From the sequence record MH791411.1: DNA of 64,000 nt; one strand, written 5' to 3'. The notes beneath the pieces are model-generated. The model had not been told where the DNA came from and searched no databases. It saw only the letters and a program-made list of their open reading frames with translations. A program made the position numbers and the translations under genes. Positions 1 to 64,000 of this stretch are shown here, piece after piece. How positions within the stretch are numbered: position 1 is the stretch's first letter; the number at the start of each line of letters is the position of its first letter. Origin of the DNA: Escherichia phage Ecwhy_1.

Positions 1-53
1 AGTACTACGTTGTCGTATACGTGTGCATTGATAGTGATTTCGATAGTGTTCAT
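1..53 (-). CDS. hypothetical protein, N-terminal part only (gene runs off window start)
   Basis: ATG at 53 with AGGAG SD upstream; reads MNTIEITINAHVYDNVV; PeSL-like cassette upstream. Confidence 0.4.
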   Translation of the reverse strand, partial: MNTIEITINAHVYDNVV

Positions 54-140
54 GGTGTATCTCCTGGACTTGAGGGGAAACCATTTCCCCCTCTCGATAT
101 AAAACATTATACGTTAATCTAACTACAATGCAAGTACTTT
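54..140 (-). promoter_or_regulatory. PeSL-like cassette: early promoter + stem-loop + SD
   Basis: minus strand TTGCAT/TTGACA -35, TATAAT -10, then GGGGGAAATGGTTTCCCC hairpin just upstream of ATG. Confidence 0.6.
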
Positions 141-332
141 TTAAATTTTATTTCCGATATAGTCCGGCATGTTCTTTTCAGTCATACGCTTTGCTAATGT
201 CTGCATATGGCTTATAGCGTTCAAGGTGTCTTCCTCCAGGGATGAATCGAGATAATCAGGATCATTCTTCACCTTGCAATGATTATGATAGCGTAGTACT
301 GCCAGTACTTTTTTAACTTCTTCTACTGTCAT
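141..332 (-). CDS. hypothetical protein (63 aa)
   Basis: ORF track; ATG overlaps stop of upstream gene (ATGA coupling). Confidence 0.6.
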   Translation of the reverse strand: MTVEEVKKVLAVLRYHNHCKVKNDPDYLDSSLEEDTLNAISHMQTLAKRMTEKNMPDYIGNKI

Positions 333-601
333 AATAAGTACCCCACTTCGTTAGCTTTCAGGTTAGTATCAATCATCAGTGGATTTTTGTAGTTCACAAA
401 ACGAGTAGTTTTCTCGATAGCGAATCCCATATAATCCAGCTTACTAACAGTACATTCATTCTTAAAAACTTCTTTCGCTGCATCGATGGCTGATTGCATG
501 GATAACCGACCATCTAAATTAATGTTTCCAAATGATCCACCAGCAGAAGTAGGATTACCGTTCATATCTTTAATGATCATAGTAGCGGAGTAGCTGGACA
601 T
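329..601 (-). CDS. hypothetical protein (90 aa)
   Basis: ORF track; ATG preceded by AAAGGAAAC SD and PeSL-like cassette. Confidence 0.65.
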   Translation of the reverse strand: MSSYSATMIIKDMNGNPTSAGGSFGNINLDGRLSMQSAIDAAKEVFKNECTVSKLDYMGFAIEKTTRFVNYKNPLMIDTNLKANEVGYLL

Positions 602-690
602 AATTTTGTTTCCTTTTATTGGTGTGGGGAGAACTATTCTCCCCTTGATGTAAACTATTATACAGTACTAAAATACTTTGTCAAATACTT
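602..690 (-). promoter_or_regulatory. PeSL-like cassette
   Basis: TTGACA-17-TATAAT then GGGGAGAATAGTTCTCCCC hairpin (minus strand). Confidence 0.65.
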
Positions 691-1098
691 TTATTCGCCC
701 ATATAGATTAGATTATCATCGCCTACATAGGGATCGCAAACGTTGATTTCTTCACAGTACTTCGTGAATACATCGCCATAGTGACCTAAACCACGATCCC
801 AAAAACCAGTTCCGTGACCTTCGCGGGTAAGGAACAGATCATGACCAGCTTGCTCATAACCGTAATCAATAAACATACCGCGAACTACTTCCAGATCATT
901 ACCGTGTTTCTCAATGAAGCGAGAACATGCAATCACCGCCGCTTGACGTGCTTCATCAGATAACTCATAATCTTCCAGGTAATCGCCGTTATCATTATGT
1001 ACAGTACTGAATTGCATAGCTTCAATGTAAGCTACAACCATTGCAGCATGATTTTTATCGTTAGTGATGTTCCGAGCGAGATTAGTAGTAGTAGACAT
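691..1098 (-). CDS. hypothetical protein (135 aa)
   Basis: ORF track; ATG start; PeSL-like cassette upstream. Confidence 0.65.
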   Translation of the reverse strand: MSTTTNLARNITNDKNHAAMVVAYIEAMQFSTVHNDNGDYLEDYELSDEARQAAVIACSRFIEKHGNDLEVVRGMFIDYGYEQAGHDLFLTREGHGTGFWDRGLGHYGDVFTKYCEEINVCDPYVGDDNLIYMGE

Positions 1099-1181
1099 GA
1101 TTTTATTCCTTATTGTATTGGGGAGAACTATTCTCCCCTTGATGTAAACTATTATACAGTACTGATATACTTTGTCAATAC
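1099..1181 (-). promoter_or_regulatory. PeSL-like cassette
   Basis: TTGACA-17-TATAAT + GGGGAGAA..TTCTCCCC hairpin. Confidence 0.65.
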
Positions 1182-1403
1182 TTAATTACGTTTAAAATGA
1201 TATGTGCCTTTATCATCCTGTACGCCCCATACTGATTTACCATCAACACCAGTGAAGCCGGATTGTAATTCAATATGGAAACCATTATTATCAACTACAA
1301 AAACTTTTTTATTTTCATCCCGATAACATTGATATTCTGAATCAACATTAAAGGCCGCATCATTCAGACGATTGGAAGCGTAAATGCAAGTCATTGTAGT
1401 CAT
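1182..1403 (-). CDS. hypothetical protein (73 aa)
   Basis: track ORF trimmed: first 11 codons are read-through of the hairpin; start MTTMTC after SD. Confidence 0.55.
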   Translation of the reverse strand: MTTMTCIYASNRLNDAAFNVDSEYQCYRDENKKVFVVDNNGFHIELQSGFTGVDGKSVWGVQDDKGTYHFKRN

Positions 1404-1500
1404 GATTTTATTCCTTAATATACCAGGGAGAACCATTCCCCCTCTCGATATAAAACATTATACTTGATTCTAAGTACAATGCAAGTACTTTTTTAAAAAT
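1404..1500 (-). promoter_or_regulatory. PeSL-like cassette
   Basis: TTGCAT-N17-TATAAT + GGGGGAATGGTTCTCCC hairpin. Confidence 0.6.
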
Positions 1501-1504
1501 AGTT

Positions 1505-1627
1505 TTCAGTACTGAATACTTATATAATAGATACACTTCCGCACCCTATGGGTCAGTGAGTTATCTCTCAATGGATATATAATAGCAAAGGGACTGACCG
1601 GAGTCAATCCCTTTTTTTAATCTTTTT
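1505..1627. repeat. conserved ~120-bp intergenic element, copy 1
   Basis: shares AGATACACTnnnGCACCCTRTGGG box and GGGACTGACCGGAGTCAATCCC hairpin + T7 run with copies at 4785 and 8785. Confidence 0.6.
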
Positions 1628-2212
1628 TTATCGTGTTACCTTACTTGCTGCCACATCACGCTTTTTATAGTACTGATTCCAGATATTGCTGGTTAAACCG
1701 TAATCAAGTACTTTAATAAGTCCATTACGATCCTGGCCGATATTCTGTTTTCTGATATCTCTTATCGTTAGTGTTGATAATGTATCATCAACGTGTTGTA
1801 GTGCATCAGCAAAGCGGTGCTGGCGTTCGATTGCATTACGTTTAATATTGTACTTTAATTCATTGCACGCGTTTACGTGCTTCACACTGCCTTTGCTTGC
1901 AGTACTCAACCGATCCATAACGATAAACATATTATCAGGATCGCATAAATGCATATGCACCTTTGCAAAGTACTGTTTCAATTGAGGGCGGTCATAGTCT
2001 AAAAAATTCCATACCTTACATTCAGTTTCATTTTGTTCTACACCCGCATCACAATTCGCGACCTTAATCACTAACCGATCATTTAAAGCGAAAACTATAC
2101 GGGAAGAACCAGCACCGATGATCTCCAGGCCAGCTAACCGACAAGCTGAAAGGATCTCTTTGTTGGTTTCCATTTCTGACAGTGTACGGATGAATTTAGT
2201 ATAATTACGCAT
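1628..2212 (-). CDS. protein kinase-like protein (194 aa)
   Basis: track ORF starts at TTG inside promoter; ATG (MRNYTKF) follows AAGGAG; IGAGSSRIVF..VIKVA and RDIRKQN..VLDYG resemble kinase G-loop/Lys/catalytic loop/DFG. Confidence 0.5.
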   Translation of the reverse strand: MRNYTKFIRTLSEMETNKEILSACRLAGLEIIGAGSSRIVFALNDRLVIKVANCDAGVEQNETECKVWNFLDYDRPQLKQYFAKVHMHLCDPDNMFIVMDRLSTASKGSVKHVNACNELKYNIKRNAIERQHRFADALQHVDDTLSTLTIRDIRKQNIGQDRNGLIKVLDYGLTSNIWNQYYKKRDVAASKVTR

Positions 2213-2243
2213 TGCATGTTCTCCTTGAGTTAATGAAACTATA

Positions 2244-2486
2244 TTACAGTACTTTACTATCAATGGCAACTACTTTTTTAACATTAACGGCGTGGATCAC
2301 TTCCTTCGTGTTTTTAGTACTGAATACTTTCGCCGCTCCTTGTTCGACCGTGATACGATAGCGACCATTAACATCAACCATATTAATAAAGTCCGGCGTG
2401 CTGAATGGTGTTGTTTTACATTTGAGTACTGTTAACAGTTCCACCAGCGATGTAGTTTCTTTGATACGTTTTTCTAAAGTAATCAT
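2244..2486 (-). CDS. hypothetical protein (80 aa)
   Basis: track ORF trimmed to MITLEKR; upstream 19 codons are promoter read-through. Confidence 0.5.
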   Translation of the reverse strand: MITLEKRIKETTSLVELLTVLKCKTTPFSTPDFINMVDVNGRYRITVEQGAAKVFSTKNTKEVIHAVNVKKVVAIDSKVL

Positions 2487-2543
2487 TTTGTTTCCCCCGT
2501 GTTGGTATGTACATATAGTACTAAAACATTTGAGTACTGTCAA

Positions 2544-2762
2544 TTAGATAATATTATATTTCTTAAAATAAAATGCGTCCTGTGTTGGTTGATACTCGAT
2601 ACCGTTACCGTTATTGACTTCAACTAATAAACCTTTGTCAATTAGTTTTTTAATAGTACGATACCCTTGTTGAAAATTGGTAAAATGTGAATCATTACGA
2701 AAGGTATAACCGTGCTTAACTGCTTCATCAATAGTTTTCTTTTCGATTTTAGATAATTTCAT
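2544..2762 (-). CDS. hypothetical protein (72 aa)
   Basis: track ORF trimmed to MKLSKIEK; promoter-leader duplicated from the 2244 gene. Confidence 0.5.
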   Translation of the reverse strand: MKLSKIEKKTIDEAVKHGYTFRNDSHFTNFQQGYRTIKKLIDKGLLVEVNNGNGIEYQPTQDAFYFKKYNII

Positions 2763-2815
2763 TTTGTTTCTCCCGTGTTGGTATGTGTACATAGTACTAA
2801 AACAATTGAGTACTG

Positions 2816-3070
2816 TCAACGTGATATTAGTTTTATTTTCTTATTGTATTGTTGATGCTCATAAAGGTTTATCTTTCCTGTGTTCTCGATTACTATCCTG
2901 TTGTTAGTGTCCACGTCGATTACACGCAGTTTCCCGTTGCTTAACTTCCTAGGTAATAGGTTACCATTAATAAACTCATTAGCAAGCTGTACGGCCTTTG
3001 TGATGATTCTCTGAGGTGCTTTATAGTGTACCCGTAAGATGTTATCTTTATATAGTTGAACCTTAATCAT
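2816..3070 (-). CDS. hypothetical protein (84 aa)
   Basis: ORF track; ATG after AGGACAAACAAA. Confidence 0.55.
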   Translation of the reverse strand: MIKVQLYKDNILRVHYKAPQRIITKAVQLANEFINGNLLPRKLSNGKLRVIDVDTNNRIVIENTGKINLYEHQQYNKKIKLISR

Positions 3071-3084
3071 TTTGTTTGTCCTAT

Positions 3085-3115
3085 AAAAAAGGCGGGAACT
3101 GATCCCGCCGTGTTG
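3085..3115 (-). terminator. rho-independent terminator candidate
   Basis: GGCGGGATCAGTTCCCGCC hairpin followed by TTTTTT on minus strand after stop of 3132 gene. Confidence 0.6.
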
Positions 3116-3131
3116 TTAGTACTGCAAGTTA

Positions 3132-3527
3132 TTAGATAACCTGGCGGCGTTTACTGTATACTGTTACACGATTACCCTTACGATCATGTCGGATCTCTTT
3201 CTGGTTGCGAATCAGTTCACTTGGACGCTTAAGGTTTGCCAGGTGATCCGCGTGAGTCCATGCGGTGTGGTTTACCTGTACTTTGATATCAGAATCAGCG
3301 ATAAACTCATCTTGTGCGTCAAGTATTGCCGCCAGCATATCCGCTCGTTTTAGTTCTGCTGCTGTCAGTACTGGCTCAGGTGAATTCACAATATCAGAGA
3401 TTTCTTTGAACTGTACGGCCCAGCGTTGACCTTTCGTTGCATCTTTGCCCATGTCTTTAAATGCTGCTCCTTCCTCGCGTGCAACAATACGGGCAGCTTC
3501 ACGGGTAGCGTAGAATTTAGTAATCAT
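3132..3527 (-). CDS. hypothetical protein; paralog of 16542-16808
   Basis: shared KYFATREQARIAAR..GATFKDMG..DRKGNRVTVY; start set at MITKF after AGGA. Confidence 0.6.
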   Translation of the reverse strand: MITKFYATREAARIVAREEGAAFKDMGKDATKGQRWAVQFKEISDIVNSPEPVLTAAELKRADMLAAILDAQDEFIADSDIKVQVNHTAWTHADHLANLKRPSELIRNQKEIRHDRKGNRVTVYSKRRQVI

Positions 3528-3622
3528 GGTATACATCCTATTAGTTGAGTTAGTACTACAAGTTAGAGTCTATTATAAAGTACTATCTGGGCAATGTCAA
3601 ATAGTACTTTAAATGGATTCTA

Positions 3623-3946
3623 TTACATGTCTTTCTTACGTTTTACATCGTGGTAGCGAACTGTTATTTCTTTGTTGATCTCTTCCTCGATGCGATGAAT
3701 AACTTTTTCTTTCGGGTTGAAACCTATAACGGTTTCTTTAATGATCTCCAAGCCCGTGTATTCGCCTTGTGTACCGTAACCGTATGTAAAGGTTTCGTGT
3801 CCCAGGTCTTCCCAGCGGTCGCCAATTAACGCAGACACGTAGCAAGAGTGGTAAGTATTGCCGTGTGAATCAGTCCACCGATTAACGTTAATGTCAAAGG
3901 AGGTTACAATTTTCAATTCTACTTTCTGGGCAAGGATCATAGCCAT
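3623..3946 (-). CDS. hypothetical protein; paralog of 10466-10789
   Basis: shared RWTDSxGNTYHSCxVS..TYGY..VKRKKD; ATG start. Confidence 0.65.
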   Translation of the reverse strand: MAMILAQKVELKIVTSFDINVNRWTDSHGNTYHSCYVSALIGDRWEDLGHETFTYGYGTQGEYTGLEIIKETVIGFNPKEKVIHRIEEEINKEITVRYHDVKRKKDM

Positions 3947-4033
3947 TTTTATTTCTCTCTCTTTGTTAGGAGGGGAACCATTCCCCTCGCTTGATGTAAA
4001 CTATTATACAGTACTAAGATACTTTGTCAATAC
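3947..4033 (-). promoter_or_regulatory. PeSL-like cassette
   Basis: TTGACA-17-TATAAT + GGGGAATGGTTCCCC hairpin. Confidence 0.65.
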
Positions 4034-4216
4034 TTATTTTTTGGAAAGTTTACGCATTAATTCTACGCTTTCTTGTGAACGTTTTGCTACCTGGCAAGCT
4101 GTATGGGCAGTAAACATTTTTGTATAGTCTGACGCTTTGCCACCGAACCGAGCGGCACGTTCACGGGCACTTGGAACTAATACTATTTCTTTATTACAGA
4201 TAGTGCACTTAGCCAT
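4034..4216 (-). CDS. hypothetical small Cys-containing protein (60 aa)
   Basis: trimmed to MAKCTICNK; CxxC near N-terminus. Confidence 0.55.
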   Translation of the reverse strand: MAKCTICNKEIVLVPSARERAARFGGKASDYTKMFTAHTACQVAKRSQESVELMRKLSKK

Positions 4217-4304
4217 TTTTATTTCTCTCTCTTTGTTAGGAGGGGAACCGTTTCCCCTCACTTGATGTAAACTATTATACAGTACTAAGATACTTTGTCA
4301 ATAC
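4217..4304 (-). promoter_or_regulatory. PeSL-like cassette
   Basis: TTGACA-17-TATAAT + GGGGAAACGGTTCCCC hairpin. Confidence 0.65.
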
Positions 4305-4580
4305 TTAAGTATTGTAAATGTCGTGAATAGTGATAAAGTTTTTACGACCGTAAACATGTAAATCAGTATCAATGTAGTGCTTATCAAGTACATCCTCGAC
4401 GCTTAAAGACGTGTCGTGAATATCTTCATAAAATTGTGGATCAACAATCGTGCTTAAGTCATCTGGCGTTAACTTATCGTTAAGGCATTGAACCGCCTGG
4501 ATATCTGCTTCACGTTTCCATTGTTCCAGATTAGTAGTCAGTACTTGCTCGATTTCGTTAGCTGTAAGTAAAGTCCGCAT
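4305..4580 (-). CDS. hypothetical protein (91 aa)
   Basis: ORF track; ATG after AAGGAAAC. Confidence 0.6.
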   Translation of the reverse strand: MRTLLTANEIEQVLTTNLEQWKREADIQAVQCLNDKLTPDDLSTIVDPQFYEDIHDTSLSVEDVLDKHYIDTDLHVYGRKNFITIHDIYNT

Positions 4581-4600
4581 TTTAATGTTTCCTTATCAGT

Positions 4601-4740
4601 GGTTGATGTAAGTATTATACTCGTTTACTTTCTATTGTCAAACTATTTTATCAGGGGAGTTTTTCGTATGTCTTACTCCTGGACTACTTAACGGGGTTAC
4701 TTATTTCGTTCCCCGTCCTGATGTAAAACATTATACTTGA
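4601..4740 (-). repeat. duplicated structured leader, copy A (copy B at 15826-15960)
   Basis: ~140 bp near-identical; two hairpins (ACGGGG..CCCCGT; CAGGAGT..ACTCCCCTG) between tandem promoters. Confidence 0.6.
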
Positions 4741-4784
4741 TTCTAAGTACAATGCAAGTACTTTTTTAAAAATAGTTTTCAGTA

Positions 4785-4895
4785 CTAGCCACCAGCAAAC
4801 AATAGATACATTTATGCACCCTGTGGGCTAATTTGTTTCTATGCGTATATAATAGCAAAGGGACTGACCGGAGTCAATCCCTTTTTCAAATATTT
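4785..4895. repeat. conserved ~120-bp intergenic element, copy 2
   Basis: GCACCCTGTGGGC box + GGGACTGACCGGAGTCAATCCC hairpin + T-run. Confidence 0.6.
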
Positions 4896-5045
4896 TTAAA
4901 CTTCTTTCGGGTTGCGATATGTGATAGCGTTCGGGTACATTTGTTTAATGTTATTCCATGCCTGGTTAACATTATAACCACTTGATCGAATCAGTTGGTT
5001 ATTACCGACACCTTGAAACACTACTTCAAATAAGAATTCTTTCAT
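4896..5045 (-). CDS. hypothetical small protein (49 aa; below track cutoff)
   Basis: ATG overlaps stop of 5042 gene (ATGA); reads MKEFLFEVVFQGVGNNQLIR. Confidence 0.4.
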   Translation of the reverse strand: MKEFLFEVVFQGVGNNQLIRSSGYNVNQAWNNIKQMYPNAITYRNPKEV

Positions 5046-5215
5046 GCTTTCACCTCTCGATCTGCTTTGCCTTTACGCCAGGCCGTTGCTAATTGTTCGC
5101 GTTGCCATAAGTCGAGTGATACGTAAAGTTTTGCATTATCACCCTTCGGATATTCGCCAGTAGTACCAATCCGATAAAACAGATCTTTCAGTACTGTTAA
5201 TTCTACCTGGACCAT
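5042..5215 (-). CDS. hypothetical protein (57 aa)
   Basis: trimmed to MVQVELT after hairpin read-through. Confidence 0.5.
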   Translation of the reverse strand: MVQVELTVLKDLFYRIGTTGEYPKGDNAKLYVSLDLWQREQLATAWRKGKADREVKA

Positions 5216-5302
5216 TATACTTTCCTCTTTGTTAGGAGGGGAACTATTCCCCTTCCGATATAAAACATTATACACTTTATTCAGTACTGTGCAAGTACTT
5301 TT
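5216..5302 (-). promoter_or_regulatory. PeSL-like cassette
   Basis: promoter + GGGGAATAGTTCCCC hairpin. Confidence 0.6.
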
Positions 5303-5515
5303 TTAATCTTTCAGCCAATGATCCTGAATGAATTTTTCACCGGAACCTTGCTGCATTGATTGTAACAGACGTTCGCGATGAGCGGCGGCGAATTGCTCAG
5401 TACTATGCGTTACACCTGGTTGATATCTGGATTCACCATTTGGGGCGATGTATTGTACATCCCACGGTTTTTCGTTAGTATCAGACCATTTACGAACGAT
5501 TAGTTGACCTTGCAT
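5303..5515 (-). CDS. hypothetical protein (70 aa)
   Basis: ORF track; ATG start. Confidence 0.6.
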   Translation of the reverse strand: MQGQLIVRKWSDTNEKPWDVQYIAPNGESRYQPGVTHSTEQFAAAHRERLLQSMQQGSGEKFIQDHWLKD

Positions 5516-5598
5516 TTTTCTTTCCTCTTAGTGGGGAGAATCATTTCTCCCCTTCATGTAAACTATTATACAGTACTGGATTGCATTGTCAATAGTTT
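5516..5598 (-). promoter_or_regulatory. PeSL-like cassette
   Basis: TTGACA-17-TATAAT + GGGGAGAAATGATTCTCCCC hairpin. Confidence 0.65.
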
Positions 5599-5922
5599 TT
5601 ATTCACCTTGTTTGAATATAGTTTTCTCCATTGATTCCATGATTGCAACCAATACAGCATGGATCTCACTTAACGCGGCATCACTAAAAGCATTAATGAA
5701 TAGGCAATCATTCTCGCGAATATTTTTAATGTACTTATCAGCAGTGGTTGCGAATTCATTCAACGGCAGATCAAATGCTTTATCCCATAATGGATGGCGT
5801 AACTGTAACAGTACTGGATTATCACGATCACCAGGGGAAAACGTACCAGTGATGAAACATACGCCCGGAATACTTTCGAACTGGCAACGGACTTCCTTTG
5901 TGATAGTAGTATGAATGTACAT
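5599..5922 (-). CDS. hypothetical protein (107 aa)
   Basis: ORF track; GAGGA SD. Confidence 0.6.
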   Translation of the reverse strand: MYIHTTITKEVRCQFESIPGVCFITGTFSPGDRDNPVLLQLRHPLWDKAFDLPLNEFATTADKYIKNIRENDCLFINAFSDAALSEIHAVLVAIMESMEKTIFKQGE

Positions 5923-5949
5923 TTATTGTTATCCTCTATTAAATTAATA

Positions 5950-6138
5950 TTACAGTTTATGAATTAATTCTTTATCTAAGCGATAGCGTACATTATTAAT
6001 GGTAACAGCATTATTTTTAATGCTACGCTGTACGGGTCCACCAGCAATAACAAACGTTGCTTTATTGCCCCGAACAATGATAGCACTTCCAGGATTACCG
6101 AAATCATCTTGTACTAAAATACTTGATAAGTTTTCCAT
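5950..6138 (-). CDS. hypothetical protein (62 aa)
   Basis: ORF track. Confidence 0.55.
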   Translation of the reverse strand: MENLSSILVQDDFGNPGSAIIVRGNKATFVIAGGPVQRSIKNNAVTINNVRYRLDKELIHKL

Positions 6139-6216
6139 TTTTATTTCCTCTTAGTAGGGGAAGATGTTTCCCCTTGATGCAAGTACTATAACAGTACTGA
6201 AAACTAAATGCAAGTA
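6139..6216 (-). promoter_or_regulatory. PeSL-like cassette
   Basis: promoter + GGGGAAACATCTTCCCC hairpin. Confidence 0.6.
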
Positions 6217-6573
6217 CTATGATAAAATCATGATAGGATATTCACTATCTATCAATACCTCGAATCCGAAACCTTCGTACCATTCTTTAAGATTAAAGGC
6301 GTTATCTTCTCCCGTATCGCATTCTAAGATGATACAATCTGAATCATCGGCGGCATCAATAAAGGCATTCATTAATTCGTTACCTTCACCATTGCCCCGA
6401 CTATCAGGATCAACATAAAGAGAATCAATAAACGCTACACGGTCATAATCAAGATCCGGTGCAATGATTCCACGTTTAACAAACCAGTACTGCAATTGTG
6501 CTACTTTGCCCTGTACTTGATAGCCAGTGATCTCGCCATTGTCAGTAGTACGCGTGATATGTTGTATTCCCAT
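6217..6573 (-). CDS. hypothetical protein (118 aa)
   Basis: ORF track; TTGACA-17-TATAAT promoter and GAGGAT SD upstream. Confidence 0.6.
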   Translation of the reverse strand: MGIQHITRTTDNGEITGYQVQGKVAQLQYWFVKRGIIAPDLDYDRVAFIDSLYVDPDSRGNGEGNELMNAFIDAADDSDCIILECDTGEDNAFNLKEWYEGFGFEVLIDSEYPIMILS

Positions 6574-6636
6574 GATTACTATCCTCAGTTAAGATATAAA
6601 ACATTATACACTATCTTTCAGTACTGTCAATACTTT

Positions 6637-6894
6637 TTATCTCATAGATCTATGCCAACAATTACGCGGATCTCTTTTAAAAGTACTATCATGATCCTCC
6701 TGGCAAGTAATACAATACATGCACCCTATAACGGCCTGGCGTCGATTCTCAGGGATTTTATCGCCGCAGTCGAGGCAATGTACAAGTGATTCTCTTTGTG
6801 CGTTAATTTGCTTTCTAGCGTGGTTAACGGCGGCCTGAATCACTGCATGAATCTCGTCTTGTTCGGCCCCGTCTTTCGCGTATCCTACTGCCAT
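6637..6894 (-). CDS. TraR/DksA-family C4 zinc-finger protein (85 aa)
   Basis: CLDCGDKIPENRRQAVIGCMYCITC = CxxC-x17-CxxC with conserved IPxxRR. Confidence 0.65.
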   Translation of the reverse strand: MAVGYAKDGAEQDEIHAVIQAAVNHARKQINAQRESLVHCLDCGDKIPENRRQAVIGCMYCITCQEDHDSTFKRDPRNCWHRSMR

Positions 6895-7056
6895 TATTTT
6901 AACCTCATTATAAAAATACTATAGTACTGTAATGCTACAATAATACTACTAGTGTTTATCTTATTCAAACCATATGATACTACATATCCACCAGCATTAC
7001 CACGAATAGTAACGCCTTTGTACTGTCTATATAAATTCAACTGCGTATATTGCCTT

Positions 7057-7129
7057 TGATCAAGAATTGATCAGAATTATACGCCTTATGCTAAATTGAT
7101 CCAGTACTTTTTTGATCATTTATTGATCG
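7057..7129. promoter_or_regulatory. cluster of five TGATC(A) / GATC sites
   Basis: five GATC within ~73 bp in an intergenic region. Confidence 0.5.
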
Positions 7130-7223
7130 ATATTATATAGTTACATTTGTGCACCCTATGGGTTAGTGACGTTCTCGTCTTGATGTAAGTATTATGCCAG
7201 TACTGGAGGATATTGTCAATAGA

Positions 7224-7421
7224 TTATTTTAATTTTTTTCTGTCATTGATTAATGCTTTCAGTACTATACTAATAACTTGCAATGATTCATCAATGACAA
7301 TGAAATTATTCTCTTTCATTAGATGATAGTTACCATTGATTGTATATTCTAACGAGTACTGTTTACGTTTAATTTTTGATAATGTTTCTATTTGTTTTTG
7401 TACTGATTTCATGCTAATCAT
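7224..7421 (-). CDS. hypothetical protein (65 aa)
   Basis: track ORF starts at TTG; ATG (MISMKS) two codons downstream. Confidence 0.5.
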   Translation of the reverse strand: MISMKSVQKQIETLSKIKRKQYSLEYTINGNYHLMKENNFIVIDESLQVISIVLKALINDRKKLK

Positions 7422-7489
7422 TGTCAAACGTCCTGTAACGCATTCTAACGAGATAAACGGTTTAGTACTGGCATTGTATAGGGTAAATG

Positions 7490-7527
7490 ATTAAAGCCCA
7501 CCAGCGTTAACCAGTGGGCTATAATAT
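7490..7527 (-). terminator. rho-independent terminator candidate
   Basis: AGCCCACTGG..CTGGTGGGCT hairpin + T-run (minus). Confidence 0.5.
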
Positions 7528-8023
7528 TACATCTTGCGGATAATCTTAACAGTATCTTTCACCGATTTACCGTTTTGCTGACATTGCTCGATCATCGCGT
7601 ATTGTTCTGCGGTCAGATCCTCGCCAGTTTTTGCCAGTACTGCGTCGATGAATGAATCCAGTGCGATCATTTTATTTCTCTCTTAGGTTAAGTTAACTAC
7701 TGTTTATAAAACTTATTATACAGTACTATCAATCTATGTCAATAGTACTGGTAATATATTTTAGCGGTAGTCGTCGTATGCTTTATTCACCTGGCGAATA
7801 TAACTTTCAAAGGCTTCGTCTACCGTTTCATACTCCCGAACATAATCACCATATGAAACTACATACATACCTTTTTGATCTTCAAACGTCATGATGATAG
7901 AATCCAGACCAACGATTTCAGTTTTTGCGATGATAGCCATTTTTTAATTCCTTAGTAGTGTAGTTGATAAAAGTTATTATGTCAGTACTATCAAACTATG
8001 TCAATAGTACTGTGATAATATTT

Positions 8024-8236
8024 TTAGTTAATGATAGTCAGTGTAAAATTGTAATCACCGCAGCGATATAGCACGTTATTCCCAAATGTCCCAACTAATC
8101 GCACATCACACAAAACGCCGGTTTTTTCTTTTACTTCCTTGATACTTGTAACTCCTGTAATATCTTTATTAAAGTATTCATGATCTGAAAATAAAACTTG
8201 TTTTGCATTTTTTAATTTCGACCGGATATTAGCCAT
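8024..8236 (-). CDS. hypothetical protein (70 aa)
   Basis: ORF track; PeSL-like cassette upstream. Confidence 0.6.
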   Translation of the reverse strand: MANIRSKLKNAKQVLFSDHEYFNKDITGVTSIKEVKEKTGVLCDVRLVGTFGNNVLYRCGDYNFTLTIIN

Positions 8237-8332
8237 TTTGTTTTCTCTCTCTGTTAGTGGGGAGAAGTTTTTCTCCCCTTGATGTAAACTATTATACAGT
8301 ACTATAATCTATTGTCAAACTATTTTTTTATA
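8237..8332 (-). promoter_or_regulatory. PeSL-like cassette
   Basis: TTGACA-17-TATAAT + GGGGAGAAAAACTTCTCCCC hairpin. Confidence 0.65.
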
Positions 8333-8674
8333 TTATTCGAAATCTTCTGGACCGGACTGATAATCATCTTCACCGTATGCACTTTCTAACCGCTCGCCAG
8401 TGTGATCATCAGTTAGTGAGTCATCCTCATAGTTCACGTCTACGCCAGTGATGTAAAACTGGCTATCGTCTGGATCATTGAAATTAATTTTCTGTATGTT
8501 TACAATAACTGTATTGATGCCCAGGACACCGCCATCAGCCGTTACAAAGTACTGATAGTTTTCGCAACCGCCTGAATTGAAACCGTAATTAATTTCGGCC
8601 CGACCATCATTTAAACGCAGTGCCTGGGCGATGATTTCGTTTTCAAAGTTAGATTGAGCAATTGAGATAGTCAT
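8333..8674 (-). CDS. hypothetical protein (113 aa)
   Basis: trimmed to MTISIAQ after hairpin read-through. Confidence 0.55.
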   Translation of the reverse strand: MTISIAQSNFENEIIAQALRLNDGRAEINYGFNSGGCENYQYFVTADGGVLGINTVIVNIQKINFNDPDDSQFYITGVDVNYEDDSLTDDHTGERLESAYGEDDYQSGPEDFE

Positions 8675-8760
8675 GATTTGTTTCCTTATTACCAGGGGAA
8701 ACCGTTTCCCCCTCTCGATGTAAAACATTATACGCTTATTGAGATAGTTTGCAAGTACTT
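8675..8760 (-). promoter_or_regulatory. PeSL-like cassette
   Basis: promoter + GGGGGAAACGGTTTCCCC hairpin. Confidence 0.6.
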
Positions 8761-8784
8761 TCTACAAATACTTTTAAAATAGTT

Positions 8785-8905
8785 TTCAGTACTCAATACT
8801 CATATAATAGATACACTTATGCACCCTGTGGGCTAGTGAGCTATCTCTCAATGAATATATAATAGCAAAATGGCTGACCGGAGTCAACCACTTTTTTCAT
8901 TTATT
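8785..8905. repeat. conserved ~120-bp intergenic element, copy 3
   Basis: GCACCCTGTGGGC box + TGGCTGACCGGAGTCAACCA hairpin + T6. Confidence 0.6.
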
Positions 8906-9126
8906 TTTAGCTTTTAGAATCGCCGCCTTTCGCGTCATGCCTTGCTTGATGTATTCTTGTACTTTCGCTTTACGTGCATTCGCTTTATTTGCTTTCGTAA
9001 ATGCCGAACAACTTTTATAGTTTAAACCTGTTGGATTCATTTAAATCACCATAAAGAATAGATAGGTTACTAACAACGCCGCGATCAATGCACCGACCAG
9101 GGCCGAACTATAGTAAGCTAATGTTT

Positions 9127-9279
9127 TCATTTTTTAGCCTGAAAGTAATGTTTAATTTGAGCGGCGGTCAGTGCACAATTACGCAGGAAGTTTTCTGTAT
9201 AACTGCGGCGAGTACTGAAAGAGAATTGACCTTTGCCGTTACCGATAGTAACATCAAACCGAGCGTTGTATTGTTTCAT
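9127..9279 (-). CDS. hypothetical protein (50 aa)
   Basis: trimmed to MKQYNARFD. Confidence 0.45.
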   Translation of the reverse strand: MKQYNARFDVTIGNGKGQFSFSTRRSYTENFLRNCALTAAQIKHYFQAKK

Positions 9280-9363
9280 TTTGATTCTCCTGTTATTGGG
9301 GAGAATCATTTCTCCCCTTCATGTAAAACATTATACAGTACTAAAAACTAATTGCAAGTACTA
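9280..9363 (-). promoter_or_regulatory. PeSL-like cassette
   Basis: promoter + GGGGAGAAATGATTCTCCCC hairpin. Confidence 0.6.
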
Positions 9364-9507
9364 TTTTTTAGATTTACGCAAACTTTCTACCATCTCAGGA
9401 GTAAGGCCCGGCGGGTAGGAAACTACTTCATCAACGAAACGTAAAGGGAATACCCCAGCGAAAGGTGAACGTGCTTTCTTAGTATTACTCTTTTTTGATG
9501 CTTTCAT

Positions 9508-9576
9508 TTCATATTCCTTAATTAGTGGGGAGAATCATTTCTCCCCTTCATGTAAAACATTATACGCGTTTAAAAA
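9508..9576 (-). promoter_or_regulatory. PeSL-like cassette
   Basis: same hairpin as 9280 cassette; precedes an unannotated ~48-aa ORF (MKASKKSN..) at ~9364-9507. Confidence 0.5.
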
Positions 9577-9786
9577 CTAATTGCAAGTACTATTTGAAAG
9601 TAAATGCTCATACGCTGCATTAACTACGTTTTCAATAACCGACTGTACAGAAAGATCCCCCACGTCCTGGCTATAGTAGAAATCGCTTACAGTGGTGTCA
9701 TCGTATGCAAATACTTTACCAGGTACTGCATCAATCACATACATATTAACCTTTAAGATGTCGATCTTATCCTGTACAGTAAGCAT
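9577..9786 (-). CDS. hypothetical protein (69 aa)
   Basis: ORF track. Confidence 0.55.
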   Translation of the reverse strand: MLTVQDKIDILKVNMYVIDAVPGKVFAYDDTTVSDFYYSQDVGDLSVQSVIENVVNAAYEHLLSNSTCN

Positions 9787-9791
9787 ATTAA

Positions 9792-10064
9792 TTAACCTTT
9801 TAAGTACTGGCTTAAGTAGTCTTGTTGATCTTCGGTGATTGCAGCCATCTTCCCTAGTACTGGATTAATGATATAATCCCCTGTAACGTCCTGTAACGCA
9901 TTCTCAGGCGGTTTAACGGCTGGGGTAGCCATAGCCATCGCCTGGACTTGTTCGACGCTATAACGCTCATATAGGCGGCATTCTTCCGGTGTTAACATAG
10001 CATCAATGCGTTTCATTGGTTTAATGATGCTTTCAACTTCATTCAGTACTTGATTAACGTTCAT
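9792..10064 (-). CDS. hypothetical protein (90 aa)
   Basis: ORF track; ATG. Confidence 0.6.
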   Translation of the reverse strand: MNVNQVLNEVESIIKPMKRIDAMLTPEECRLYERYSVEQVQAMAMATPAVKPPENALQDVTGDYIINPVLGKMAAITEDQQDYLSQYLKG

Positions 10065-10115
10065 GGTATAATCCCCAATATAAGCGGCCTGAATCGACCG
10101 CTAACGATGTTTTGA

Positions 10116-10385
10116 TTAATAGGTGTATGGTTGACGTTCAAACAATGATTGCACGTTGTACGCCCCACTAATGGGCTTTGCTGGTAAATCAATTTTATAT
10201 TGCTCACGCTTAAAGATAATAAAACGGCAATTGTTTTTAACATCAAAATTGATTGAACGTTCCAGTAGTTTACCATCGTGCACAAATACAAGATAACCGC
10301 TCGCTACTTGTTTTGTAGTACTGGTTGCAACCATAGACCGCCGAACATGTGTACCTGCGTCGATTAAAGTACTGATATTTTTCAT
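10116..10385 (-). CDS. hypothetical protein (89 aa)
   Basis: ORF track; AAGAGGAA SD; preferred over overlapping 10061-10291. Confidence 0.55.
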   Translation of the reverse strand: MKNISTLIDAGTHVRRSMVATSTTKQVASGYLVFVHDGKLLERSINFDVKNNCRFIIFKREQYKIDLPAKPISGAYNVQSLFERQPYTY

Positions 10386-10465
10386 TATACGTTCCTCTTA
10401 AGTTAATTTAATTTCTTTCCCCTATGCAGACACTATATCAAAGTATCTGCATAAAGTAAAGCTAA

Positions 10466-10789
10466 TTAAAGATCTTTTTTGCGTTTAACATTCTGTACAG
10501 TACAATGCAACGGGATATTAAGATCATTGCACAAACGAGTAAGGGAGGTTTCATCAGTATTAAGCCCGTCTACTGATTCCTTTAATAGATCTAACGCCGT
10601 TTGTTGATATGCATCTTCATAGCCATAAGTAAATGATTCAACCGCCAGATCATTCAAACCGTTATCCAGTTCGACGCTTACATGACAAGAATGATAAGTA
10701 TTGCCATATGAATCAGTCCAACGTTTACCGTCAACATTGATTGCACGGATTGCAGCCAGGGAAACGGTGTTAATGATAGTTTTAGCCAT
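10466..10789 (-). CDS. hypothetical protein; paralog of 3623-3946
   Basis: shared RWTDSYGNTYHSC..TYGY..VKRKKD. Confidence 0.65.
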   Translation of the reverse strand: MAKTIINTVSLAAIRAINVDGKRWTDSYGNTYHSCHVSVELDNGLNDLAVESFTYGYEDAYQQTALDLLKESVDGLNTDETSLTRLCNDLNIPLHCTVQNVKRKKDL

Positions 10790-10878
10790 TTTTGTATTCC
10801 TTAAATTAATATGTTGTCTTGATAAAATCTATTATGCCAGTACTATCAAACTATGTCAATAGTACTGTGATAATATTT

Positions 10879-11091
10879 TTACTTACTTTCTTTCGCTGCT
10901 TTGTGCGTTGCCACTGCCATAACCACATCAGCACGAACAAAGTTTTTAACCGTGTCGCTGTAATAATTGATCGCTTCATCAATATCTGCGAACATCCGAT
11001 ACATACCGCACCACGATACTTTATAACCTGCTTTCACTTCTTCCAGCTTAACCAGTGATTTGTTAACTTTGATTTTAGTAATGATAGCCAT
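10879..11091 (-). CDS. hypothetical protein (70 aa)
   Basis: ORF track; upstream promoter cassette identical to the one at 10790-10878. Confidence 0.6.
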   Translation of the reverse strand: MAIITKIKVNKSLVKLEEVKAGYKVSWCGMYRMFADIDEAINYYSDTVKNFVRADVVMAVATHKAAKESK

Positions 11092-11319
11092 TTTATTTTC
11101 CTCAGTTGTCTTGATAAAATCTATTATGCCAGTACTATCAAACTATGTCAATAGCACTGTGATAATATTTTTACTTACTTTTTGCTTTCTTGATTGCTTC
11201 CACCTGGTCGGCCCATTCTTTACCCCATACTTGTAAATTATAATGGTACTGGCAAAGAGCAACGCCCCGCTTTAAACCCGTAATAGATTTCTGACCACAT
11301 TGACAAGTTTTCATTTTAG

Positions 11320-11400
11320 TTTCCTTGTAGTGGGGAGAACCATTTTCTCCCCTTGATGTAATGTATTATACTTTATTCGATTTACTTTGCAAGTACTTTT
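11320..11400 (-). promoter_or_regulatory. PeSL-like cassette
   Basis: promoter + GGGGAGAAAATGGTTCTCCCC hairpin; precedes unannotated ~47-aa Cys-containing ORF (MKTCQCGQK..) at ~11176-11319. Confidence 0.5.
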
Positions 11401-11628
11401 TTAATTTAATTCATCAAGGCAAAGGATACGCTCAACGCCCAAATCAGTTAAACTAATCGACGGCACTTGATAGGTTTCAATGTATGCTACACTTGCCCAC
11501 TGACCGAACTCATTAACGGCCCAGGTATTCATTGCATTTTGCAATTCCGCACCTTCCTTGTTGGTAATGACTGCAACTACTTGTTCGTTGCCAGTAGTAC
11601 CAGATACGCGAGTAATGATAATAGCCAT
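11401..11628 (-). CDS. hypothetical protein (75 aa)
   Basis: trimmed to MAIIITRV. Confidence 0.55.
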   Translation of the reverse strand: MAIIITRVSGTTGNEQVVAVITNKEGAELQNAMNTWAVNEFGQWASVAYIETYQVPSISLTDLGVERILCLDELN

Positions 11629-11720
11629 TGTTTTGATTCCTTTGATTTGGAAGGAGAACCGTTTCCCCCTCTCGATGTAAAACATTATACGCTAATCTCT
11701 TAATCGTGCAAGTACTTTTT
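11629..11720 (-). promoter_or_regulatory. PeSL-like cassette
   Basis: promoter + GGGGGAAACGGTTCTCC hairpin. Confidence 0.6.
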
Positions 11721-11869
11721 ATTACTTTTTGCAAAATACTTTAAACGCTCTCAATCGCGTTCTTACAGCCTTAACGCCACCAGCTAGGGCAATGCATCAG
11801 ATAATCAGTTTAATGCGTTAGAATCGTTTCTAGGCGGTGCTGGTGGCATGGTAAACGATAAACACAAAA

Positions 11870-11913
11870 AAGCCCACCGTTTAAGGTGGGCTAGTGATTC
11901 AGTACTTTAATTG
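11870..11913 (-). terminator. rho-independent terminator
   Basis: GCCCACC-TTAAAC-GGTGGGC hairpin + TTTTTT on minus strand after stop. Confidence 0.7.
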
Positions 11914-12396: not shown

Positions 12397-12599
12397 TTTA
12401 TAAATCCTCAATTAAAGTTTAGTTTACGTTTATTAGTGTATCAAAGTTTTCTCGACGTGTCCAGTTTTTCGTTCGACTTACTGGCGGTCTACTTAGTGCT
12501 CCCCGTCTTGATGTAATACATTCTACGCTTTTCTGCGGTAATGTCAACTACTTTCTTAAAACTATTTTCAAAGTATCTCAGTACTACGATACTACAAAA

Positions 12600-12629
12600 A
12601 CAAAAAAGCCCACCAGGTGGGCTATGTAC
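12600..12629 (-). terminator. rho-independent terminator
   Basis: GCCCACC-TGGTGGGC hairpin + T-run (minus). Confidence 0.65.
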
Positions 12630-12860: not shown

Positions 12861-12881
12861 GATGTTACCCCGTAGTATCTA

Positions 12882-60643: not shown

Positions 60644-60646
60644 TTG

Positions 60647-61949: not shown

Positions 61950-62224
61950 TATTCAACCTTATCATAAACAAGTTTGTGTGTGCTTAGTACTTTGTTGAGA
62001 TGACCAGGGCATTCATATACATACAATCGCTCCTGACGTTTTTCCCAACCACCACAGATACGGCCTGATTGTGTACATACCTCATACTCGTTAATAAAAG
62101 ACTTACCTGTGAATGTACAATCCTGACGAACTAAGTCTTTTGCACTAAACCTGCCGTCATCATTACATGCTGTAAGAAACATTGTACAGAATACAAAGAC
62201 AACTGTCAATAGTTTTTTAATCAT
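61949..62224 (-). CDS. putative lipoprotein (91 aa)
   Basis: signal peptide with LTAC lipobox-like motif. Confidence 0.6.
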   Translation of the reverse strand: MIKKLLTVVFVFCTMFLTACNDDGRFSAKDLVRQDCTFTGKSFINEYEVCTQSGRICGGWEKRQERLYVYECPGHLNKVLSTHKLVYDKVE

Positions 62225-62589
62225 TTAACATCACCCCAACGGAAACCTTTCATATAATTCAAATTCACCTCAACGAGTTCATGTGTTTTTGTACACCAAA
62301 TGGAGAGAGTTTTTGTAACATCACCAGGTTCAGATTCATAATTCACACAATAACCTTCAATGCGTAGAGTTTTGTTAGTCCATGACTCCCACTCAATCCA
62401 AATTTCATTTGGATAATAAACCATATCTTCGTTGAACGTATGGAATTGGTCCATTGGTAAGTGACCTTCAACTTCAATTACTTCAGCACTTCGTGCCAGT
62501 TTTTCAAGCTTGTACTTTATTTCAGCAAGAAATTCTTCATTATTCATACGAGTTAATAAATCTGTTGCACGGGTTGTATCAAGGCTCAT
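62221..62589 (-). CDS. hypothetical protein (122 aa)
   Basis: ORF track. Confidence 0.6.
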   Translation of the reverse strand: MSLDTTRATDLLTRMNNEEFLAEIKYKLEKLARSAEVIEVEGHLPMDQFHTFNEDMVYYPNEIWIEWESWTNKTLRIEGYCVNYESEPGDVTKTLSIWCTKTHELVEVNLNYMKGFRWGDVK

Positions 62590-62837
62590 TGTTGTACTCC
62601 ATTAATCACTGAAGTATTGATTCGTGTTTTACCGCTGCTGTATCCAGTACTGGTATTTGCATTAGGGCAATAAACTGTATACAAGGTTACACCAGCACCG
62701 TCCTTTTGCATACGATAAATCTTACATCCTGCTTCTTGTAATTCAATAGGGAGAATAAAATCACTTGTGCGTTCTTTTGTTGAAGCGTCACATGCAGTGA
62801 GTAAAAATGCAACGAGTACTGCTACGATATATTTCAT
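62586..62837 (-). CDS. putative lipoprotein (83 aa)
   Basis: MKYIVAVLVAFLLTAC lipobox-like. Confidence 0.6.
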   Translation of the reverse strand: MKYIVAVLVAFLLTACDASTKERTSDFILPIELQEAGCKIYRMQKDGAGVTLYTVYCPNANTSTGYSSGKTRINTSVINGVQQ

Positions 62838-63145
62838 TAACGAACCTCCACTTCTTGAGAAAGAGCATGAGTCAGTGCATTTGAATTCGAACTATTCATT
62901 TCACGCTGACATACAAACATAATGGCATCTTGTACTGAACCTGCGATTTCATACTCACGACCTTCTGGATCAGTTACCAGATGTTCAACGATACAACCAC
63001 CACGCAGTACAGAAGCACCAGTACTTACACTAATCCTGTAACCTAAAAAATCAAACTGCATACATGCGTCAGTAGGTTTCATCCAATAACCGCTGTTTTG
63101 GTTCAAATCGATGATTACAAAACCTTGAGTGTTAGTTTGAAACAT
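62837..63145 (-). CDS. hypothetical protein (102 aa)
   Basis: ORF track. Confidence 0.55.
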   Translation of the reverse strand: MFQTNTQGFVIIDLNQNSGYWMKPTDACMQFDFLGYRISVSTGASVLRGGCIVEHLVTDPEGREYEIAGSVQDAIMFVCQREMNSSNSNALTHALSQEVEVR

Positions 63146-63363
63146 AGTTAATTCCTCATTTAATTTAAAAGGGTGGAAACGCAGTGACGAGTACGATTAT
63201 GCTGTCTTTCCTTTCACTGCATTCCCTTTTATATAAAACATAATACAGTACTGATATCTTATGTCAAGTATTAATCACCAAAAATCATCAGATACCCAAA
63301 CCAACCCACACAGACGACTAAGCTAACAATACCAAAGACAATCTCTAAAGTCATGTTGCATCC

Positions 63364-63564
63364 TTAATCAATGATTTTATATTCACGATGACCATAGAAT
63401 CCAGCCTCAAGGATGCGATTACCATCAGCATCTTCCAAATCCCACCCACGGGATGTTTCGGCAATAATAGTCATGATGTGACCTCTTGGGAAAATTCCAC
63501 TCAAGGTGGATACATCCTCAAGTAATTGAACCTTCTTACCAACATTTGTATTTGATTTAAACAT
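63364..63564 (-). CDS. hypothetical protein (66 aa)
   Basis: ORF track. Confidence 0.5.
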   Translation of the reverse strand: MFKSNTNVGKKVQLLEDVSTLSGIFPRGHIMTIIAETSRGWDLEDADGNRILEAGFYGHREYKIID

Positions 63565-63573
63565 ACTTTACCC

Positions 63574-63756
63574 TTATTCGTTGATTACGTCAAGTACTTT
63601 GTCCAGTTTCTTACCAATACTATCCTTTGGTTTCTCACCATTCTGGAATACATTAGTACTGCAATACTCAGGACGGGTATTAGGGAACTTCTCGTTCATC
63701 CAGGAGTGACCATATACACCAAGAATGATACCTACGATAAGAATGATGATTTGCAT
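63574..63756 (-). CDS. small membrane protein (60 aa)
   Basis: N-terminal hydrophobic segment. Confidence 0.5.
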   Translation of the reverse strand: MQIIILIVGIILGVYGHSWMNEKFPNTRPEYCSTNVFQNGEKPKDSIGKKLDKVLDVINE

Positions 63757-63770
63757 GATATATCCTCTAA

Positions 63771-63980
63771 TTAAATTACATATGGTTTATAGTAATGAAT
63801 CTCGTTTGATATTACAGCGAAGACTTTGTTATTAAATCTTTCACCATAATCACGAAGAGATTCACCTTCTTCGCTTTCAATAAAGTAATTATATACTGGT
63901 AGACGTGCGGTGTCAACACCTACAAATGATTTCATGTAAATTTGTACTAAACGATTCATTCCTTCATTTAAGCATTGCAC
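63771..63980 (-). CDS. hypothetical protein (69 aa or longer; start near window end)
   Basis: ORF track. Confidence 0.45.
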   Translation of the reverse strand: MQCLNEGMNRLVQIYMKSFVGVDTARLPVYNYFIESEEGESLRDYGERFNNKVFAVISNEIHYYKPYVI

Positions 63981-64000
63981 CTCAAAGTGCTTGATACCTT

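Follow-up and report, generated by a model that had tools for sequence, protein, structure and literature searches.

We analysed a 64,000-nucleotide stretch (hereafter the window; 64 kb, G+C content 35.8%) of Escherichia phage Ecwhy_1 (MH791411.1), in which the palindromic hexamer AGTACT recurs far above chance. The window is 98–99% identical to the Escherichia jumbo phages WPEC5, fEgEco12 and ECO103 4-12-1, and 82–88% identical to 121Q, PBECO4 and phAPEC6, all of the genus Asteriusvirus. Its positions 3000–9000 align to 15,373–9,043 of fEgEco12, a phage whose direct terminal repeat of 20,993 bp has been determined experimentally (PMC13070987). Since this segment maps within that repeat, approximately the first 18 kb of the window represent terminal repeat. 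Dozens of tiny minus-strand genes, each with its own sigma70-type promoter, fill this portion; an array of RCC1-like genes lies further in on the plus strand, and a block of minus-strand genes occupies 40–64 kb (Table 1).

Enrichment of AGTACT in genes, promoters and terminators

The window contains 280 copies of AGTACT (4.4 per kb). One hundred dinucleotide-preserving shuffles yielded 22.1 ± 5.1 copies on average and never more than 37, and the observed-to-expected ratio (O/E) under an order-1 Markov model was 12.9 (z ~78). This ranks AGTACT first among hexamers by a wide margin, followed by the overlapping CAGTAC and GTACTG. The enrichment is nested, growing from 2.4-fold for GTAC (619 copies) and 5-fold for AGTAC to 12.9-fold for AGTACT and ~70-fold for CAGTACTG (67 copies, ~1 expected), which is why a maximal-order Markov model returns an O/E of only 1.19. 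The original prediction, made by eye, had put the rate at ~3 per kb; the excess it described was confirmed and proved larger than estimated (280 copies against ~22 expected). The comparison with a Markov expectation that it proposed stayed far from a ratio of 1, at 12.9, or 10.9 without repeats. Density is 6–8 per kb at 1–24 kb and ~3 per kb at 24–64 kb. Spacing is close to Poisson, with 41 neighbour gaps of ≤30 bp against 34 expected, and site clustering or helical phasing was rejected on this basis, except for promoter pairs 20–22 bp apart.

An artefact of composition, of codon or amino-acid usage, or of duplicated promoter and terminator cassettes can virtually be discounted. Some sites do lie in paralogous cassettes, and the excess of AAGTACTT stems from a repeated −35 cassette. 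With intra-window repeats masked (10.7% of the window), however, 204 sites were left in 57.1 kb at an O/E of 10.9, which rules out repeated cassettes as the cause, and the sites represent 235 independent 40-nt contexts, the largest context cluster having 12 members. O/E values of 9–16 were likewise obtained in non-repetitive late and metabolic regions of the related phages GAP32, BF and CBB.

Our gene calls (116 genes) place 141 sites in coding sequence, at 3.0 per kb, and 136 between genes, at 8.2 per kb; the intergenic count is inflated because very small open reading frames are undercounted. Within genes we found 143 sites against 40.2 ± 5.4 (maximum 57) in synonymous-codon shuffles, a 3.6-fold excess that extends to all codon phases (70, 25 and 48 observed against 23, 6 and 11; 3–4.4-fold each). 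Late and metabolic genes of GAP32 (72 sites against 15.9) and BF (66 against 18.9) also exceed their synonymous shuffles, and codon or amino-acid usage is thereby ruled out as the cause in the window and in both phages. That AGTACT is frequent inside coding sequence, as first noticed by eye, is borne out by these 141–143 sites.

The extended consensus is symmetric, TTnC-AGTACT-GnAA. Coding and intergenic DNA alike show mirror-image flank preferences relative to the direction of transcription, which rules out an RNA-level signal and does not suit a protein-coding one, and the two half-site flanks are statistically independent. Such flanks point to recognition of duplex DNA by something two-fold symmetric.

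Counted from the first base of TATAAT, AGTACT has two preferred start positions, −7 (17 cases) and −27 (18 cases), with ~0.7 expected per offset by chance. At least ten spacers of unrelated sequence accompany the −7 box, (T/C)AGTACTG-TATAAT, which is found within the terminal repeat, outside it (at 48.4 and 59.3 kb) and also in K64-1 and a RaK2-like contig. Fifteen promoters, 14 of them on the minus strand and one on the plus strand, have AGTACTG immediately 5′ of TATAAT, in agreement with the original description of early promoters, to which we add a second box at the −35 element. This −27 box adjoins the −35 hexamer, as AGTACT-TGCAA or as AGTACT-A-TTGACA, and the two boxes bracket the hexamer, 20–22 bp apart (Table 1). 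A TGn extended −10 element was ruled out by its register: TG would be expected at −15/−14 and lies here at −14/−13 (G at −13). The LexA-box and extended −10 readings of ACTGTATAAT failed on register as well.

Eight genes of the RCC1-like array end in a hairpin, GCCAGTACT..AGTACTGGC, followed by a T-run, in accordance with an earlier remark that AGTACT forms terminator stems there. Four of the eight hairpins were folded, with predicted energies of −12.4 to −15.7 kcal/mol and z-scores of −5 to −7. Promoters and terminators together hold only ~50 of the 280 sites.

Conservation and clade distribution

Comparison with phAPEC6 (28.8 kb aligned, 82% identity) showed 65 of 96 sites to be fully conserved (0.68), against 43% of all hexamers. 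Third-codon identity was 86.7% inside sites and 72.2% elsewhere (p = 2e-5, or 2e-3 with one observation per site). Whole-site conservation also exceeded that of all hexamers in the comparisons with 121Q (0.72 vs 0.44) and ph0011 (0.72 vs 0.47), between K64-1 and the RaK2-like contig (0.93 vs 0.85) and between GAP32 and BF (0.41 vs 0.27), that is, in five of five phage pairs. Between the window and K64-1, 19 orthologous genes were compared (58% nucleotide identity): the position is shared by 4 of 22 sites, where 0.84 would be expected (p = 0.009); site density in these genes is 3.0 and 3.8 per kb, respectively, though most positions have moved. Strain-variable DNA carries 1.5 sites per kb, against 3.0 in core DNA (P = 0.018).

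Eight of the nine classes of one-mismatch neighbours of AGTACT occur at 1.0–2.1-fold, including the transition neighbours AGTATT (1.40), AGCACT (1.40) and GGTACT (2.09), and only AGGACT/AGTCCT is low (0.44). This leaves no depleted donor word for a very-short-patch-like conversion, unlike the case of CTAG, and such a conversion was rejected. The view of AGTACT as a selected motif is supported: the excess survives corrections for composition, dinucleotides, synonymous codons and repeats, and its sites are conserved in the five pairs. The picture suggested by these alignments is one of selection, or a selection-like drive, acting mainly on site number, with a minority of sites fixed in position.

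Every enterobacterial relative sampled has AGTACT as its most over-represented hexamer, with O/E values of 12.8 in WPEC5, 9.0 in phAPEC6, 10.4 in 121Q, 17.7 in K64-1, 20.4 in the RaK2-like contig, 9.2 in GAP32, 8.7 in Serratia phage BF and 15–16 in Pectobacterium phage CBB; a pooled 212 kb from five lineages (CBB left out) holds 711 copies (O/E 11.5). The excess defines the enterobacterial RaK2-like jumbo phages of the genera Asteriusvirus, Alcyoneusvirus, Mimasvirus and Eneladusvirus (hereafter the clade). The related Pseudomonas phage PA5oct has one copy against 8.8 expected, and orthologous genes hold ten copies in GAP32 and none in PA5oct. A T4-like coliphage (4 copies, 5.4 expected), 40 kb of the E. 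coli chromosome (3 copies, 3.7 expected; ~1 per 13 kb) and the unrelated coliphage phi92, of similar G+C (100–148 kb; no copy, 12.6 expected), are without the excess, which rules out host-driven composition. The orthologue counts, together with the lack of enrichment in the two phages of the same host, attribute the excess to lineage and not to host.

AGTACT is also the target of ScaI-type Type II restriction systems. The original argument that such a site would normally be avoided fits phi92 and PA5oct; since the hexamer is treated as a restriction-type target in these other phages, its 11–20-fold enrichment in the clade is paradoxical. ScaI-type systems are predicted either to be lethal to phages of the clade or to be specifically countered by them.

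A second word follows the same clade boundary. No GCGC occurs in the window, where 48.5 are expected, or in any of the enterobacterial RaK2-like loci sampled; the tetramer is at normal frequency in E. coli (8 per kb), PA5oct, phi92 (71 vs 61) and a T4-like phage. A phage nuclease directed against host DNA may account for its absence, or else very strong restriction pressure. Palindromic hexamers that are missing altogether number 26 of 64 in the window and 21 in the pooled 212 kb of five lineages. Type IIS-like words are nearly absent from the pooled clade loci (GGTCTC, 1 vs 36; GAGGAG, 2 vs 30), and sites for EcoRI, EcoRV, NdeI and BsrGI show no avoidance there. DNA of fEgEco12 was cut as predicted by ten restriction enzymes and is thus not hypermodified (PMC13070987). 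The genomes of the clade have clearly been shaped by selection on short words read by DNA enzymes. Phage phi92 lacks 24 palindromic hexamers, AGTACT among them, and has kept GCGC; its losses show that coliphage lineages purge different sets of words.

We also searched IMG/VR for three AGTACT within ~70 bp. Among the matches listed, the dispersed pattern was seen only in members of the clade and in one contig, L076; the other matches listed were tandem coding repeats. L076 (IMGVR_UViG_3300011833_000042, 31.8 kb) holds 28 copies against 3.5 expected, with CAGTACTG-type flanks, and has no GCGC. It is scarcely similar to known phages and is probably an unsampled branch of the AGTACT-rich clade. 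As in this case, an AGTACT-rich, GCGC-free composition offers a simple signature of the clade in metagenomes. A search for related loci by an nrdC.10-like ATPase gave only two, and this protein proved a poor anchor for the clade because tblastn showed its spread to be T4-wide.

Two observations concern individual phages. A phage recorded as Xanthomonas phage XbC2, a close relative of L068, falls in the AGTACT-rich clade and speaks, like the orthologue counts, for lineage over host. It shares 88% identity with DNA whose match to Erwinia phage Kaldavass is 90%; its recorded host or its host range may merit scrutiny. In PA5oct (100–130 kb), CTGCAG occurs 14 times against 2.8 expected (~5-fold) and TCTGCA/TGCAGA 46 times against 10.9, while CTGCAG is absent from all phages of the clade. 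The CTGCAG/TCTGCAGA excess is possibly an alternate iterated palindrome or a consequence of codon usage.

Possible readers of the word

The most fitting description of AGTACT is that of a highly iterated palindrome (HIP) in a viral, AT-rich form, with an unusually clear selective signature and a link to promoters that HIP1 lacks. The closest analogues are HIP1 (GCGATCGC) and the alternate HIPs of cyanobacteria (Robinson 1995; Elhai 2015, PMC4390886). Like these, AGTACT is a short palindrome far above chance genome-wide, in genes and spacers; the identity of the word is fixed within a clade and replaced or absent in relatives, and a characteristic density is apparently maintained. HIP1, however, is a GC-rich octamer found in cells, whereas AGTACT is an AT-rich hexamer or octamer found in a virus, 3–4 times denser, with promoter-fixed positions and in a genome that otherwise purges palindromes. 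HIPs are moreover defined by their link to a cognate methyltransferase, a link that is hypothetical for AGTACT. The phages could show whether HIP-type elements are functional or by-products of repair, in a system much more tractable than cyanobacteria. None of the papers searched on this phage group reports the AGTACT motif, and full-text searches gave nothing relevant.

Several over-represented words, among them Chi, uptake sequences, GATC, the FtsK-orienting polar sequences (KOPS) and HIP1, have in each case directed attention to a particular machine that reads DNA; AGTACT is a very strong case of such a word. The DNA uptake sequence (DUS) of Neisseria and the uptake signal sequence (USS) of Haemophilus are asymmetric 9–12-mers read by a competence receptor, at ~1 per kb. 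They resemble AGTACT in that they are selected for density, their positions turn over and inverted pairs double as terminators, as in the eight RCC1-array hairpins; AGTACT, by contrast, is a perfect palindrome with symmetric flanks, and a lytic phage has no uptake step. E. coli GATC (Dam, SeqA, MutH) is likewise a palindrome at ~4 per kb, a genome-wide mark for symmetric proteins with roles at promoters, but this tetramer is near chance frequency, whereas the hexamer needed ~12-fold enrichment to reach that density. Chi (GCTGGTGG) is also a host- or lineage-specific word enriched by selection on DNA processing, although it is asymmetric and orientation-dependent. The stoperators of cluster A mycobacteriophages, temperate phages, are asymmetric 13-mers co-oriented with transcription, ~25–35 per genome; they share with AGTACT the presence of many copies across a phage genome, in their case of a repressor site, also within transcription units.

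We tentatively favour a reading in which AGTACT, within TTnC-AGTACT-GnAA, would be the recognition word of a clade-specific, two-fold-symmetric putative protein, serving both as a self tag and as an operator of early promoters. From the enrichment, symmetry, selection, fixed promoter offsets and clade distribution, we infer a protein that binds AGTACT and is most likely encoded by the phage, and an effect of its binding. With one site per 230–430 bp of phage DNA, as opposed to ~1 per 13 kb in the E. coli segment sampled, the putative factor would load densely and selectively on phage DNA, and the word would act as a self tag written into the sequence. In the early region of the terminal repeat, where the word occupies two fixed places in sigma70 promoters, abutting −35 and at ~−19 to −14, its occupancy would block or reshape the binding of RNA polymerase and thereby set the timing of early transcription. 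The remaining copies would sit where their cost is least, in synonymous codon choices and as inverted pairs in terminator stems. Jumbo phages of this large and little-understood group are therapeutic candidates with ~1,500 AGTACT per genome and >80% of genes without known function. The word would offer a direct handle on a sequence-specific factor, through an oligonucleotide (for example, TTCAGTACTGAA), a methylome or a promoter reporter, and on early-gene control in the terminal repeat.

Several points weigh against this reading. A Pfam scan of the ten largest unannotated proteins of the window returned no DNA-binding candidate, only CapR, DenV and a weak match to a domain of unknown function. 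A symmetric methyltransferase, nuclease or topoisomerase would leave the same signatures in the sequence, and a selection-like biased repair could also yield conservation above background. A promoter role is confined to ~35 of the 280 sites; the late regions of GAP32 and BF show no intergenic excess of AGTACT, and that of the window is inflated by the undercounted small open reading frames. The comparison with the host rests on a single 40-kb segment of E. coli.

The main rival, which we consider possible, takes AGTACT or its GTAC core as a HIP-like methylation word, the target of a phage orphan DNA methyltransferase. Methylation could protect against ScaI-type restriction, mark strand or age for repair or replication, or act as an epigenetic switch of early promoters; alternatively, and within the same estimate, methyl-directed repair would generate the sites as a by-product, an origin already suggested for HIP1 in cyanobacteria. 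HIP identity tracks the cognate orphan methyltransferase (PMC4390886), and the clade encodes 2–4 DNA methyltransferases (PMC5259590, PMC7247149, PMC3622015, PMC11895373). One of these families, a small N6-adenine methyltransferase of the Dam family (PF05869) that carries an NPPY motif, is kept from CBB and GAP32 to Asteriusvirus at ~40% identity and may be an enzyme that reads or modifies AGTACT. The paper on PA5oct is silent on methyltransferases, and as other phages purge AGTACT, leaving ~1,500 sites per genome unprotected would be hazardous. The only published methylation data, those for RaK2, however, describe Dam-, Dcm-, CpG- and EcoKI-like methylation, with methylated CpG detected by bisulfite (PMC3622015); these point elsewhere, as AGTACT holds no CpG. 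The one-mismatch neighbours reveal no depleted donor or ratchet, and the fixed promoter offsets are left unexplained unless methylation regulates those promoters.

A rather doubtful reading is that the phages, in place of hypermodified bases, encode self and non-self in word usage, being both AGTACT-saturated and GCGC-free: a phage factor would bind or mark AGTACT and so protect, organise or license the phage's own DNA, and a GCGC-cutting phage nuclease would destroy host DNA. The host is the mirror image, with ~0.07 AGTACT and 8 GCGC per kb. In T4, hydroxymethylcytosine marks phage DNA and dC-specific nucleases degrade host DNA; word usage would be the sequence-based counterpart of that arrangement.

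Unlikely, in our view, is a functionless drive, in which a clade-specific bias of repair or recombination (for example, mismatch correction to a nicking-enzyme site) creates and restores AGTACT. It would account for a density that is kept while positions are not, for the halo of mildly enriched one-off variants and, through gradual amelioration, for the lower density in accessory DNA; Elhai raises the same possibility for alternate HIPs (PMC4390886). Such a drive sits poorly with exact promoter offsets that accompany unrelated spacers and are kept across genera, with the four cross-genus sites that hold their position and with the lack of any specific depleted neighbour, unlike CTAG under very-short-patch repair.

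Distinctly improbable is an action site of a symmetric phage DNA enzyme, whether a T4-type type II topoisomerase (A/GTAC/T, 4-nt stagger) or a nickase providing entry points for clamps, recombination or replication on the ~370-kb genome; we assess the two versions jointly. A symmetric hexamer with a 4-bp core, near-Poisson spacing and presence in every region, late genes included, would suit such an enzyme, but the fixed promoter positions would go unexplained, and blunt or double nicking at ~1,500 palindromes would fragment the genome.

A site for a protein of Enterobacterales hosts, such as the nucleoid-occlusion factor SlmA recruited to block cell division, is very hard to sustain, even though the SlmA site GTGAGTACTCAC has an AGTACT core (PMC3020112) and the excess is found in Enterobacterales phages and absent from the Pseudomonas relative. 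SlmA recognizes a 12-bp palindrome, GTRAGYRCTYAC, in which G1, T2, A4 and G5 are required, with a purine at position 3 (PMC3020112). No full GTRAGYRCTYAC occurs in 233 kb of clade DNA, and GTR stands on 5 of 560 half-sites; the favoured flank is TTC, and GAGTACTC is found at none of the 280 sites. These flanks largely refute a SlmA-binding site, and the T4-like phage and phi92, which share the host, are without the motif.

Further words and features of the locus

The E. coli Chi octamer, GCTGGTGG, is present in 14 copies in the window, against 0.6–0.8 expected (~20-fold). Eleven copies are co-oriented with minus-strand genes, and several are intergenic in the terminal repeat. They may guard the linear genome ends against RecBCD.

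Table 1. Positions of the features discussed, in window coordinates unless another locus is named
Feature	Position	Strand	Remarks
Terminal-repeat part (of the ~21-kb direct repeat)	1..18000	−	Tiny early genes; AGTACT ~6.7 per kb, the highest density
RCC1-like gene array	24344..39599	+	0–4 AGTACT per gene, in or out of frame; ~2.5 per kb
Strain-variable accessory gene, 447-aa CapR-domain protein	42981..44324	−	GC 29%; 0 AGTACT, an instance of the lower density in non-core DNA
Early promoter, two boxes	14501..14533	−	AGTACT-TGCAA and CAGTACTG-TATAAT (~−19 to −14)
Early promoters, design as at 14501	14018–14050, 13233–13265, 9330–9362	−	
Early promoter variant	7715..7749	−	AGTACT-A-TTGACA...GAT-AGTACT-G-TATAAT; box centres 22 bp apart
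Promoter with −7 box	657..684	−	TTGACA-N9-(T/C)AGTACTG-TATAAT
Promoters of the 657..684 form	1151–1178, 4003–4030, 4274–4301, 5565–5592, 8291–8318, 18935–18962, 48412–48439, 59279–59306		Other spacers
Sole plus-strand promoter with −7 box	18170..18197	+	TTGCTT-N9-CAGTACTG-TATAAT
Intrinsic terminator	26676..26699	+	GCCAGTACT-TG-AGTACTGGC, then T-run; after RCC1-like gene
Similar terminators	27930, 30317–30339, 31569, 32787, 36514–36536, 37721–37743, 39606–39634		RCC1-like array
Second promoter class	~42971, 44609, 46416, 50890, 53933, 57527	−	
Second promoter class, further copies	1437–1627, 4581–4895, 8729–8896		
5′-UTR hairpin GGGGAGAAnnnnTTCTCCCC, examples	13190–13215, 9290–9320, 8255–8280, 5530–5555, 1115–1140, 620–645	−	
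Chi GCTGGTGG	537, 2441, 4789, 6038, 6988, 7498, 11777, 18731, 38267, 48912, 59445	−	
Chi GCTGGTGG	11839, 18743, 25776	+	
PF05869 N6-adenine methyltransferase, 180 aa	CBB gp072, CBB locus 6528–7070; Asteriusvirus homologue BF17 60860–61351		Outside the window

A strain-variable island at 42981–45411 adjoins denV. It encodes the CapR-domain protein in the window, a UvrC-like GIY-YIG protein in phAPEC6 and an N6-adenine methyltransferase in ph0011. The last of these was rejected as a candidate enzyme for AGTACT, as it belongs to the variable island and is not clade-wide.

Two further elements accompany transcription units in the window. A second promoter class, GGGTTGACTTCGGTCAGCCCTTTTTGCTATAAT, consists of a terminator-like GC-rich hairpin and a T-run, with the −35 hexamer in the stem, and carries no AGTACT box. 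A few kb past the right end of the window, phAPEC6 encodes a sigma-70 factor of the RpoD subfamily (gp066c, phAPEC6 locus 37860–38825), which might bear on the two promoter classes of the window. Just downstream of many early promoters, ahead of the ribosome-binding site, lies a conserved hairpin of the 5′ untranslated region (5′-UTR), GGGGAGAAnnnnTTCTCCCC.

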